Under the pieces are notes generated by a model. That model saw nothing but the letters and a program-made list of their open reading frames with translations, ran no database searches and had not been told where the DNA came from. This document shows positions 1-59,888 of a stretch of DNA of 64,000 bases, piece by piece. The stretch's first letter is position 1. Every line of letters begins with the position of its first letter. A program made the position numbers and the translations under genes. Where the stretch lies: contig OZ024741.1 of assembly GCA_964016885.1 (NCBI GenBank), positions 331,514,001 through 331,578,000 of the forward strand. The letters run 5' to 3'. Source of the DNA: Eledone cirrhosa. Lineage: Eukaryota.

Positions 1-84
1 ATAACATATTGTTAATATGATATCCCTGAAATATATATAATGAAATAAATATGGTTTTATAAATATAGTTTCCATTTATTTAAT

Positions 85-134
<50 letters not shown>

Positions 135-143
135 TAACATTAA

Positions 144-194
144 AGTTTAAGCAAAGAATCGCTGCTTTCACCCTTAACAGGATCTTCTGAAACT
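144..194 (-). ncRNA. Type I hammerhead-like motif with variant core CAGAAGA
   Basis: Minus strand: AGTTT-CAGAAGA-TCCT GTTAA GGGT-GAA-AGCA GCGATTCTT TGCT-T-AAACT; stems I, II and III pair. Confidence 0.6.
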
Positions 195-861
195 AGAAAA
201 AATGAATCTGTAAACGCAGAAGTAAATATTTCGAAAAACGTTGTAGCCAAAGGAAAACAGGAAGATAATACTTTGGTTCGTGAAGACGTTCCCTGGTAAT
301 GAATGGAAAAAAGCAAAGATAATACGTCATTATATAGAGTGATTAGAACAATTAGACGCAAAAACAAAACCACATTTATGGTATAAATGGAGTCATTAGA
401 CTAATATTCTATTTAGGAAACTGAATGATTCTCGGCTTCGGAGTTAAGAATAATTTAAATAAATTAGTTGAACGAAATAAGGTTCATATGTGTCGCGCCG
501 GGATTACATACGTGTTTATATTTATGTGTATGTATATGTATGGCGTCTTTTTTTCGCGTATACACGTGCATGTAAGCATATAGTTGTGTGTTTGTTTATA
601 TTTAATTATTATTACTTTTCTAATTTTAATAATCTCTGTTATTTTCGTTCAACTAACTTATTTACATTATTCTTAACTCCAAAGCCGTGTCTTTGCGTGT
701 AATTGTTCTCATCGCTACACATAACGATGTATCATCTTTGCTTTTTTCCGTTCATTGGCAGGGAACGTCTTCACGAACAAAAGTATCATCTTCCTGTTTT
801 CCTTCGGTTGCAACGTTTTTCGAAATATTTACTTCTGCGTTCACGGATTGATTTTTTTTTT

Positions 862-912
862 AGTTTCAGAAGATCCCATTAAGGGTGAAAGCAGCGATTC
901 TTTGCTTAAATT
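862..912 (+). ncRNA. Type I hammerhead-like motif with variant core CAGAAGA
   Basis: AGTTT-CAGAAGA-TCCC ATTAA GGGT-GAA-AGCA...TGCT-T-AAATT. Confidence 0.6.
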
Positions 913-1044
913 TTAATCTGTTATTTTAATAAATGTTTGCTCTATGGTTCTTATATATTTGATATATATTTATCATTATCGAGCCCTCTTAGAATTTTAG
1001 TCTTCACATTTATTATTATTACTATATATATATCGTGTACATAT

Positions 1045-10929: not shown

Positions 10930-11115
10930 ACAAAGGAATTGTGGTAAGGAACTAGATGGACCATAACGCACCAGAGTACTCAATACTTAGGGTAGTAGAG
11001 TGGGAAATAGGAAAAAGTATGACCCCGATGGCAGAGCTCAATCCATTTCGATGGCTATTTCTGGAAATAGCCATCGAAACGGCTTGAGCTCTGCCGTCGG
11101 GGTCATACTTTTTCC

Positions 11116-18041: not shown

Positions 18042-18212
18042 TATTTTAATTTTGTCTCATATAAAATAATACAACTGGCTATCCACAAAATACGTATAGT
18101 TAGCACCCCAAACGTATAACTGGGATTATACTAAGGTATATCCTAATGTTTGTTGAGTGAGACGGAAGCCGGTCAGAGTATTGCTTAAAGCTTTCTCTGT
18201 TAATGTATTAAA
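18042..18212 (+). mobile_element. 3' tail of hammerhead element family E
   Basis: Near-identical reverse complement of 41900-42070; TA flanks. Confidence 0.8.
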
Positions 18213-18230
18213 TATATATAAATATATATA

Positions 18231-18432
18231 AGGAAGGAATTGTGGTAAGGAACCAGATGGACCATAACGCACCAAAGTACTCAATACTTAGTGTAGTAGA
18301 GTGGGTAATAGGAAAAGGTAAGACCCCGACGGCAGAGCGCAAGCCGTTTCGACGGCTATTTCTGACAGCTATTTCTAGTCCAGAAATAGCCGTCGAAACG
18401 GCTTGAGCTCTGCCGTCGGGGTCATACCTTTT

Positions 18433-34271: not shown

Positions 34272-34437
34272 AACGAAGGAGGTGTGGTAAGGAACCAGAT
34301 GGACCATAACGCACCAGAGTACTCAATACATAGGGTAGTAGAGTGGGTACTAGGAAAATGTTTGACCCCGACAGCAGAGCTCAAGCCGTTTCGACGGCTA
34401 TTTCAGTCTAGAAATAGCCGTCGGAGTCAAACATTTT

Positions 34438-41846: not shown

Positions 41847-41899
<53 letters not shown>

Positions 41900-41903
<4 letters not shown>

Positions 41904-42243
41904 ATACATTAACAGAGAAAGCTTTAAGCAATACTCCGACCGACTTCCGTCTCACTCAACAAACATTAGGATATACCTTAGTATAATCCCAATTATACGT
42001 TTGGGGTGCTAACTATACGTATTTTGAGGATAGCCAGTTGTATTATTTTATATGAGACAAAAATTAAATACATCTCTCTTTCCAAACGATCGTTTCATTA
42101 TAAGTTTTCTACAAGTTGGGAAAATAATGTCCAGGTTATGTAGAAGCCTACACCTAGTCTATAGGAATATATGCAGGTGGGCACTTATAAATCATCAGTG
42201 GATGCCCAACAATATCGATATAAAAAAAACCCTACCGATATTG

Positions 42244-52860: not shown

Positions 52861-52894
<34 letters not shown>

Positions 52895-52899
<5 letters not shown>

Positions 52900-53670
52900 T
52901 AAAATAACAGATTAAAGTTTAAGCAAAGAATCGCTGCTTTCACCCTTAACGGGATCTTCTGAAACTAACAAAGTCAATCTGTGAACGCAGAAGCGAATAT
53001 TTCAAAAAACGTTGCAACCGGAGGAAGACAGCAAGACGATACTTTGGTTTGTGAAAACGTTCCCTGGCAAAGAACGGGAAAAAACGAATATAATACGTCA
53101 TTAATAGGAGCGGTAAAAAACAATTACACGCAAAGACAGAACCACGTTTATGGTATAAAAGAAGTCGTAGACTAATGTTCTCTTAAGTGGTTCATAGAGA
53201 CGTTCTCTGGCAATGAACGGAAAAAACGAAGATAATACGTCATATGTGGAGCATGGAGAACAATTGCACGCAAAGACAAAACCACGTAAATGGTATAACT
53301 GAAGTCGTAGACTAAAATTCTAACTAGGAAACCGAATGATTCTCGCCTTCAGAGTTAAGAATAAAGTAAATAAAATACAGAGGTAATTGAAATTAAATAA
53401 ATACATACACGCATCCATATACGAACGAACCAAAGTATCGTCTTCCTGTCTTCCTCCGGTTGCAACGATTTTGAAATATTCACTTCTGCATTCACAGATT
53501 GACTTTGTTAGTTTCAGAAGATCCAGTTAAGGGTGAAAGCAGCGATTCTTTGCTTAAACTTTAATCTGTTATTTTAATAAATATTTGCTCTACGGTTCTT
53601 ATATATTTGATATATATTTATCCTTATCGAGCCCTCTTTGGATTTTAGTCTTCAAATTTATTATTATTAC
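52895..53670 (+). mobile_element. Fold-back hammerhead element family A, copy 2
   Basis: Homolog of 130-1022; hammerhead-like motifs at 52916-52966 (-) and 53510-53560 (+); internal ~120-bp duplication. Confidence 0.8.
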
Positions 53671-53702
53671 TATATATATATATATGTGTGTGTGTGTGTA
53701 TG

Positions 53703-57331: not shown

Positions 57332-57726
57332 ATATATAGTAAAACCTACTCCAGCCAGTAGGCATCTCTAACAAAATACACCCAGTCCCACCACCACCAC
57401 CCCCACCCCATCCACACCACCCCGTTCTATGTAAAGTTATGTTGGTGCCGCGCCATCGAGGCCGAAACAAATGAGATCGTGTAGGTGTCACGACAAAAAA
57501 ACACACAGTCCACGCTGTAATGTGGCCGTGTAGGCAACACGGTAAAAACCTCCCAGACCCACACTGTAAATGTGGTTGGTGTTAGGAAGGGCATCCAACT
57601 GTAGAAAACCTGCCAGACAGTCCTATGCGAGCAAGACAATCACTCTTGCCTCAAGTGGGACTACCCCCGTCCAAACCCATGCAAGCGTGGAACACGGACG
57701 TTAAACGTTGATGATGATGATGATGA

Positions 57727-57792
<66 letters not shown>

Positions 57793-59260: not shown

Positions 59261-59360
59261 TATATCTATCTACTTATCTATCTATATCTATCTATCTCTC
59301 TATATATGTATGCACAAATATATATATACAAATATATATATATACATATATATATATATA

Positions 59361-59888
59361 TCATCATCATCATCATCGTTTAACGTCCATATTCCACGCT
59401 TGCATGGGTTTGGACGGGAATTTTCCCACTTGAGGCAAGAGTAGTTGTCTTGCTCGCATAGGACTGTCTGGCGGGTTTTCTATGGCTGGATGCCCTTCCT
59501 AACACCAACCACATTTACAGTGTGGGTCTGGGAGGTTTTTACCGTGTTACCTACACGGCCACATTACAGCGTGGACTGTGTGTTTTTTGTCGTGACACCT
59601 ACACGACCTCATTTATTTCGGACTGGATGTTGTGGTACCAACATAACTTTACATCGAAAGGGGTGGTGTGGATGGGGTGGGGGTAGTGGGACGGGGGGGT
59701 ATTTTGTTAAGAGGTGCCTACTGACTGTAGGTTTCACTTTGTACTTAGGCAAGGCGGGCCTTCTGTATTACTGTGTAGCGCCAAAAATCTCGGTCCAGTG
59801 ACATTGTCTTGGAGAGGTGTAAGTGTGTGAGGTCGGAATTTATCAAGTCGTCCCAGGTTTTTCTGGGTCTGCCTACTCCGTGGCTACC

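Follow-up and report, generated by a model that had tools for sequence, protein, structure and literature searches.

The hammerhead-like motif with A at position 4 (A4) that recurs in the window, the whole 64-kb stretch of DNA analyzed, was traced to a Penelope-like retroelement (PLE) of the Hydra clade. Its conservation indicates that it is a genuine core variant, under selection and long inherited; both the ribozyme and the retroelement clade are already known. The reading that we favor, with slightly better than even confidence, is that of a predicted weakly cutting, probably protein-assisted type I hammerhead.

The whole window was searched with a hammerhead descriptor in which position 4 was left free. 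Exactly four sites were matched, and these are the four arms that the first-pass annotation had placed at 144-194, 862-912, 52916-52966 and 53510-53560, with the sequence that it gave. No site was matched in any of three block-wise dinucleotide shuffles, and the four window matches are not chance. Position 4 is A in 4/4 arms and the hammerhead topology with three stems is present in all of them, supporting a type I fold. The described part of the motif was borne out; the true motif is larger, a bulge linking stem I to a distal helix of 9 bp. As claimed, stem II has a U.U at its base, but it is not unusual, occurring in 14/26 published Hydra-clade rows (Craig 2021, File S2). A U10.1-U11.1 mismatch has already been described as tolerated (Perreault 2011, PMC3088659), and the stem II U.U is an ordinary feature, not a new one.

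Read from sequence, the extended type I hammerhead fold of arm 2 occupies 843..921 on the plus strand. It comprises distal stem I (9 bp, 843-851/913-921), the bulge (852-861), stem I (862-866/908-912, with a G.U pair), the core (867-873, with C3 at 867 and A4 at 868), the U.U (874/886), stem II (875-877/883-885), GAA (887-889), stem III (890-893/903-906) and H17 (U907), with the predicted cut at 907/908. Arm 1 (144..194, minus strand) has C3 at 189, A4 at 188 and a predicted cut at 149/148; its distal helix is damaged by a small deletion and the third pair of stem II is U.G. Arm 3 (52916..52966, minus strand; C3 52961, A4 52960, predicted cut 52921/52920) has the family majority form. In arm 4 (53510..53560, plus strand; C3 53515, A4 53516, predicted cut 53555/53556) an A.G mismatch breaks the third pair of stem II.

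Two insertions had been recognized in the window and both stand, but the four arms are not separate events: the two arms of one insertion are one event, and the window therefore holds two events, not four. Both insertions are pairs of 5'-truncated copies, head-to-head and facing outward into (TA)n, with a ∼90-nt tail on one side only. Insertion 1 spans 122-1021. Its left arm (122..687, minus strand) contains 5'-truncated 3' UTR and pseudo-LTR (pLTR), ends at (TA)n without a tail and has 77-84% identity by blastn to the full-length genomic copy L041. Its right arm (688..1021, plus strand) is a shorter inverted pseudo-LTR that runs into the ∼90-nt tail (the beginning of the 5' UTR) and then (TA)n, at 86% identity to the L041 pLTR and tail. 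Insertion 2 spans 52887-53681. The left arm (52887..53426, minus strand) is again 5'-truncated 3' UTR and pseudo-LTR ending at (TA)n, at 92% identity to L041, and the right arm (53425..53681, plus strand) is a short inverted pseudo-LTR and tail followed by (TA)n, at 97% identity to L041 over 246 nt. No coding piece of the element was found inside the 64-kb window. Matches of 50-66 nt to the family's extreme 3' end, partly TA repeat, were also seen at 18181-18230 and 41866-41931.

The shared element is ∼3.5 kb long and was derived from ten genomic stretches with close motif pairs. Copy L041 has a direct-orientation repeat-ORF-repeat layout with the motif in both repeats, and L055 has the same layout. 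The motif lies in the pseudo-LTR and the predicted cut falls ∼156 nt upstream of the ATG (L041). Approximately 30 of the 68 best-scored copies retain an uninterrupted 713-codon frame, with 95-97% identity. The ORF carries YRDD at 350 and YIGL at 602, assigned by motif to a reverse transcriptase plus an endonuclease of GIY-YIG type at the C terminus, together with RWR at 41, DKT at 119, CxCX5C at 568, CxxC at 666 and CxH at 694; Pfam and PDB searches with the ORF gave 0 matches. Published Hydra-clade PLEs have a C-terminal endonuclease ORF with RW[K/R], DKT, CxCX5C, CxxC and CxH, and (TA)n targets (Craig 2021, PMC8557442). Because the ordered ORF motifs equal this description, the source of the window arms is assigned to an ordinary member of the known clade, a Hydra-clade Penelope-like element (EN+). 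Insertion into (TA)n was seen in both window insertions and most fetched loci, and inverted 5'-truncated copies tailed at one end in both window insertions and many other loci. The closest named family is Hydra-1_Obim, with a similar N-terminus as compared by eye. Identity as a non-LTR retrozyme was rejected, the copies being scattered fragments of a coding element, inverted and truncated, and not tandem non-coding units with a hammerhead in each. Identity as Naiad was rejected on ORF motifs and layout.

Genome-wide counts cover one 3.0-Gb assembly. Exact patterns gave 22,105 matches with A4, 110 with U4 and 135 with C or G at position 4, and 0 with reversed-pattern controls. A looser pattern gave 30,626 A4 matches against 1,126 with U4, and the family size exceeds 30,000 copies. 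A4 was present in 115 of 117 arms chosen without regard to U4; the U4 required in canonical type I hammerheads (CUGANGA) is not the state of this family. A hidden canonical U4 subfamily was considered and rejected: 17/20 loose-pattern U4 loci inspected were fold-back junctions centred on position 4, and the native 5' (upstream) strand of stem I was kept in 0/20. Three of ten strict-pattern U4 loci were true point changes. The apparent U4 at junctions arises because the short palindrome TTC-A-GAA lets an inverted arm read U; it is a strong hot spot for template switching, and in motif searches its products resemble canonical CUGA cores. As an observation in its own right, about a thousand fold-back loci (L093-L112, e.g. 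G000:C1:4182335) invert exactly at position 4 in TTC-A-GAA. One sequencing run containing the family showed no difference at position 4 among the differences listed, and in six small-share runs of other organisms nothing aligned on the motif.

Older subfamilies were reached through loop variants of the motif. The older-subfamily pattern gave 147 matches, and among the first 100 listed position 4 was A in 88, U in 6, G in 4 and C in 2; all four U4 loci fetched from these matches were junctions. A4 was present in 30/30 old-subfamily copies, of which 29 were gathered by BLAST with a 281-nt stretch; the search pattern that yielded the first old copy held some core positions constant, and conservation may therefore be somewhat overstated. 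Positions C3, G5, A6, G8, A9, G12, A13, A14, A15.1-U16.1 and H17 were each kept in 114-117 of 117 young arms, and the same core positions (C3 to H17, excluding 4 and 7) in 28-30 of 30 old copies. The earlier proposal that the source element already carried A4 holds, since A4 is family-wide and has passed through subfamilies both old and young while the stems and the remainder of the core stayed conserved. Aligning genomic copies, as the first-pass annotation had suggested, showed the stems to be conserved, the opposite of the outcome that it had set against its claim.

Old and young consensus sequences differed at 0/53 core and stem positions and at 11/25 free positions (Fisher p 6e-7), with 60% identity over 151 upstream columns. 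Compared with a second young subfamily, the old consensus differed at 0/53 core and stem and 9/25 free positions, with 68% identity upstream. The free positions that changed between old and young copies were N7 (U to A), loop 2, loop 3 and the stem I bulges. The other nine unpaired core positions, G8 and G12 included, were unchanged (against N7, p 0.017 for one young subfamily and 0.073 for the other). In hammerhead numbering G8 and G12 are the catalytic residues. Protein fragments of the old lineage were 69-74% identical to the young protein, decay included. As the core and stems remained unchanged while the loops, bulges, N7 and the upstream flank diverged, the fold including its core was kept by selection with A4 in place.

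This pattern bears directly on whether the motif is a functionless relic, in which an inactivating U4A in a master copy spread by hitch-hiking. Any change in the master of a retroelement is common to all its copies, and uniformity within the family alone is therefore uninformative; such a history would produce it readily. It fits poorly with 0/53 core and stem changes beside an upstream flank only 60-68% identical (p 3e-10 and 8e-8). On these comparisons the relic reading is largely refuted, and we give it very little credence.

Stem I continues via the bulge into the 9-bp distal helix, for which 93% of cells were paired in 15 old and young copies. Across the same 15 copies stems I to III as well as the distal helix were 93-100% paired, against 23-52% in slid controls. 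Covariation was not detected, 1/21 pairs having changed on both sides in the 15 copies and 221/500 shuffles scoring as high; the stems are conserved in sequence rather than by covariation. The modelled probability of the hammerhead secondary structure did not exceed 0.0015 for A4 copies as they occur in nature, or 0.0026 when position 4 was replaced by other letters. In the folding model A4 raised a competing helix that buries G12-A15.1 from ∼0.01 to 0.3 in young copies, with a smaller effect in old copies. Folding energy z-scores of five arms were unremarkable (−0.95 to +0.24). Rfam returned no hammerhead among 6 matches at E up to 10 for 201 nt of L041, or among the best 150 of 278 matches for the window; the matches obtained were microsatellite-driven microRNA matches and chance matches only, and were discarded.

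These structural features were weighed against the reading that the motif is a fully active monomeric hammerhead, with the distal helix, a contact between bulge and loop 2 and a stable stem III fully offsetting A4. The conserved 9-bp distal helix and the 4-5 bp stem III agree with such a design, tertiary contacts have been suggested to offset core variants (Perreault 2011, PMC3088659), and in a fungal PLE the hammerhead, which has a large helix III, functions as a monomer (Cervera 2014, PMC4209133). The remaining helices are less favorable, stem I being weak and A-U-rich and stem II only 3 bp long, with the predicted competing helix in addition, and loop 2 and the bulge varied freely between subfamilies. 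Single and double CUGA-turn mutants were all low in a tertiary-stabilized hammerhead, the exception being a C3/G8 swap, so that stabilization did not rescue them (Roberts 2023). Full activity is accordingly considered improbable.

The first-pass annotation had offered a natural core variant and an attenuated ribozyme as alternatives; the two are compatible, and a cleavage-dead motif whose fold is kept is a third candidate. In the favored reading, that of a weakly cutting hammerhead, a Hydra-clade Penelope-like retrotransposon is the source of this type I motif, in which A4 was passed down through old and young subfamilies with the remaining fold unaltered. Cleavage after CUU would probably be retained but slow, and folding help, from the element's own protein or from a loop-bulge contact, would probably be needed. 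Any cutting, the cutting rate and the help of protein are features that we infer as likely. Position and topology are those of canonical Hydra-clade hammerheads (L041 map; Craig 2021). The natural variant U4C is a poor cutter in vitro that nevertheless suffices in vivo (Perreault 2011, PMC3088659), and a Penelope-type hammerhead cut only with the element's protein (PMC11167929). The CUGA-turn mutants of Roberts 2023 count against weak cutting as well, and catalytic hammerhead mutants had no effect on insertion in vitro (PMC11167929), so that cutting may be dispensable. The absence of covariation, the low modelled probability of the hammerhead structure with its competing helix, and the lack of an Rfam hammerhead match also weigh against weak cutting. 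A footprint of cutting was not found in the genome: the predicted cut site is the start of 162 copies and a control 4 nt upstream that of 130 (p 0.07), the first 20 of the 162 being mostly true junctions and the control starts being taken without equal inspection. Speculatively, slow cutting may be of advantage to the element, whose copying template is the uncut RNA.

Much of this would also be expected of an RNA that does not cleave, its three-way fold being kept as a binding site for the element's reverse transcriptase-endonuclease or a host factor, for RNP assembly or template choice. The weakness of CUGA mutants, insertion in vitro without hammerhead catalysis and the lack of an excess of copies starting at the cut site all agree with this, as do the several successful lineages in the genome with differing core changes and the growth of the family beyond 30,000 copies. 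Set against it is the identity of the unchanged unpaired positions, which are exactly those of the catalytic core, the sole changed core position being one that is free in active hammerheads. A fold kept for binding need not reproduce that pattern, though a protein reading the folded core could. We regard binding without cleavage as a possible but clearly less probable explanation than a weakly cutting hammerhead.

Sister lineages in the genome show that the core has changed elsewhere. A second, young Hydra lineage, whose 808-codon frames are intact, has a C4 core (CCGAAGA) and a long stem II insert (L165-L169, L172); its motif lies in the 3' repeat, ∼800-900 nt past the ORF. Its pattern gave 2,122 matches; of the first 100 listed, 87 have C4, and CpG decay may account for some of the 13 with U. 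A third Hydra lineage (L049:7100-7250, L155-L163) has U4, but position 9 is U in most of the 10 copies read. The core of this A9U lineage, CUGAUG-U, sits before a G-C closing pair, and a relative (L174) has canonical A9. Further sister families have U3-A8 or canonical cores, among them a Hydra family with a U3-A8 core (UUGAGAA) and palindromic stem III on the minus strand of L205, past an ORF end near 2741. A tree was built from 270 C-terminal positions of 19 loci, using families of this genome only and a midpoint root. The A4 and C4 lineages lay apart with U4 families beside each; support was 100 for the branch separating the A4 group, and deeper nodes were weak. Published Hydra rows have U4 in 26/26, having been found with a canonical descriptor and hence being biased (Craig 2021, File S2). 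From these rows and the U4 families beside both the A4 and C4 lineages, U4 is likely to be the ancestral state, with at least two changes at position 4, and the tree and cores indicate that C4 arose in the sister lineage independently of A4. We tentatively suggest, without regarding it as the probable case, that position 4 is a tuning site, at which a predicted working A4 hammerhead here and C4 in the sister lineage would each give slow, protein-gated cutting that spares RNA for copying yet keeps transcript processing. The A9U or U3-A8 cores of other sister lineages fit relaxed catalysis as well as tuning, which counts against the weakly cutting reading.

The family was compared with known systems. 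It shares with the Hydra-clade hammerheads of Craig 2021 (PMC8557442) the type I topology in the pseudo-LTR and the U.U flanking stem II, and the elements share ORF motifs, (TA)n targets, inverted 5'-truncated copies and a one-sided tail. It differs from them in having A4 where those rows, selected with a canonical descriptor, have U4, in a stem III that begins A-G-C-A with a 9-nt loop where theirs begins A-C with a loop of 1-3 nt, and in the presence of the distal stem I helix. Metazoan PLE variants likewise include family-wide hammerhead variants in repeats, with U3-A8 among the core changes; their activity in vitro was low and cofactors were suggested (Cervera and De la Pena 2014, PMC4209133). 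Unlike the motif here, those motifs are minimal, of dimer type and with little helix III, and U3-A8 there is compensatory whereas A4 here has no visible compensation. The text portion covered of that paper mentions no position-4 change. The viroid U4C (Perreault et al. 2011, PMC3088659) is, like A4, a natural position-4 change, and the variants there cut slowly, but it replaces a pyrimidine by a pyrimidine, unlike U4A. U4A does not occur as a string in the running main text of that paper.

The PAc hammerhead of Anolis Poseidon (PMC11167929) is likewise in the pseudo-LTR of a PLE, upstream of the tail at which copying begins. Its cut site showed no RNA ends, just as no excess of genomic junctions was found here. 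It belongs to another PLE clade and its ORF starts inside the ribozyme, whereas the ORF here lies downstream of the predicted cut. In the literature searched no natural U4A was found; an A4 variant already in print, or a U4A rate already measured, may have escaped the search, and the novelty of a natural A4 hammerhead is provisional.

PLE hammerheads are nearly universal, yet they are poor cutters and were dispensable for insertion in vitro, and the A4 family bears on why they are retained. A4, C4, A9U, U3-A8 and canonical cores occur together in a single clade of this genome, a natural series in which at least the A4 and C4 lineages still have coding copies that are intact or nearly so. Cutting by A4 would mean that genome searches rely on too narrow a hammerhead consensus; absence of cutting would mean that a conserved hammerhead fold does some non-catalytic work. 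Were position 4 a tuning site, standard CYGANGA searches would miss such ribozymes wholesale.

Other repeats and frames were also noted. Window positions 1-50, with the 10 bases before the window (L001:751), hold a minimal hammerhead with canonical CUGANGA that belongs to another repeat family; it has a AUAUAUAU palindromic stem III and directly adjoins insertion 1, and relatives occur in L013, L024, L049, L052, L123 and L206. Three palindromic stubs in (TA)n, at ∼11020-11110, 18330-18425 and 34350-34430 of the window, carry GAAAC-hairpin-GUC parts without an upstream CUGANGA. An 848-codon open frame for an unrelated LINE-type reverse transcriptase lies between family copies at L047:2006-4549 (minus strand). 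A 288-nt inverted repeat at 57496-57783 and 59301-59588 of the window, 91% complementary and with its halves 1.5 kb apart, is likely to be another fold-back insertion.
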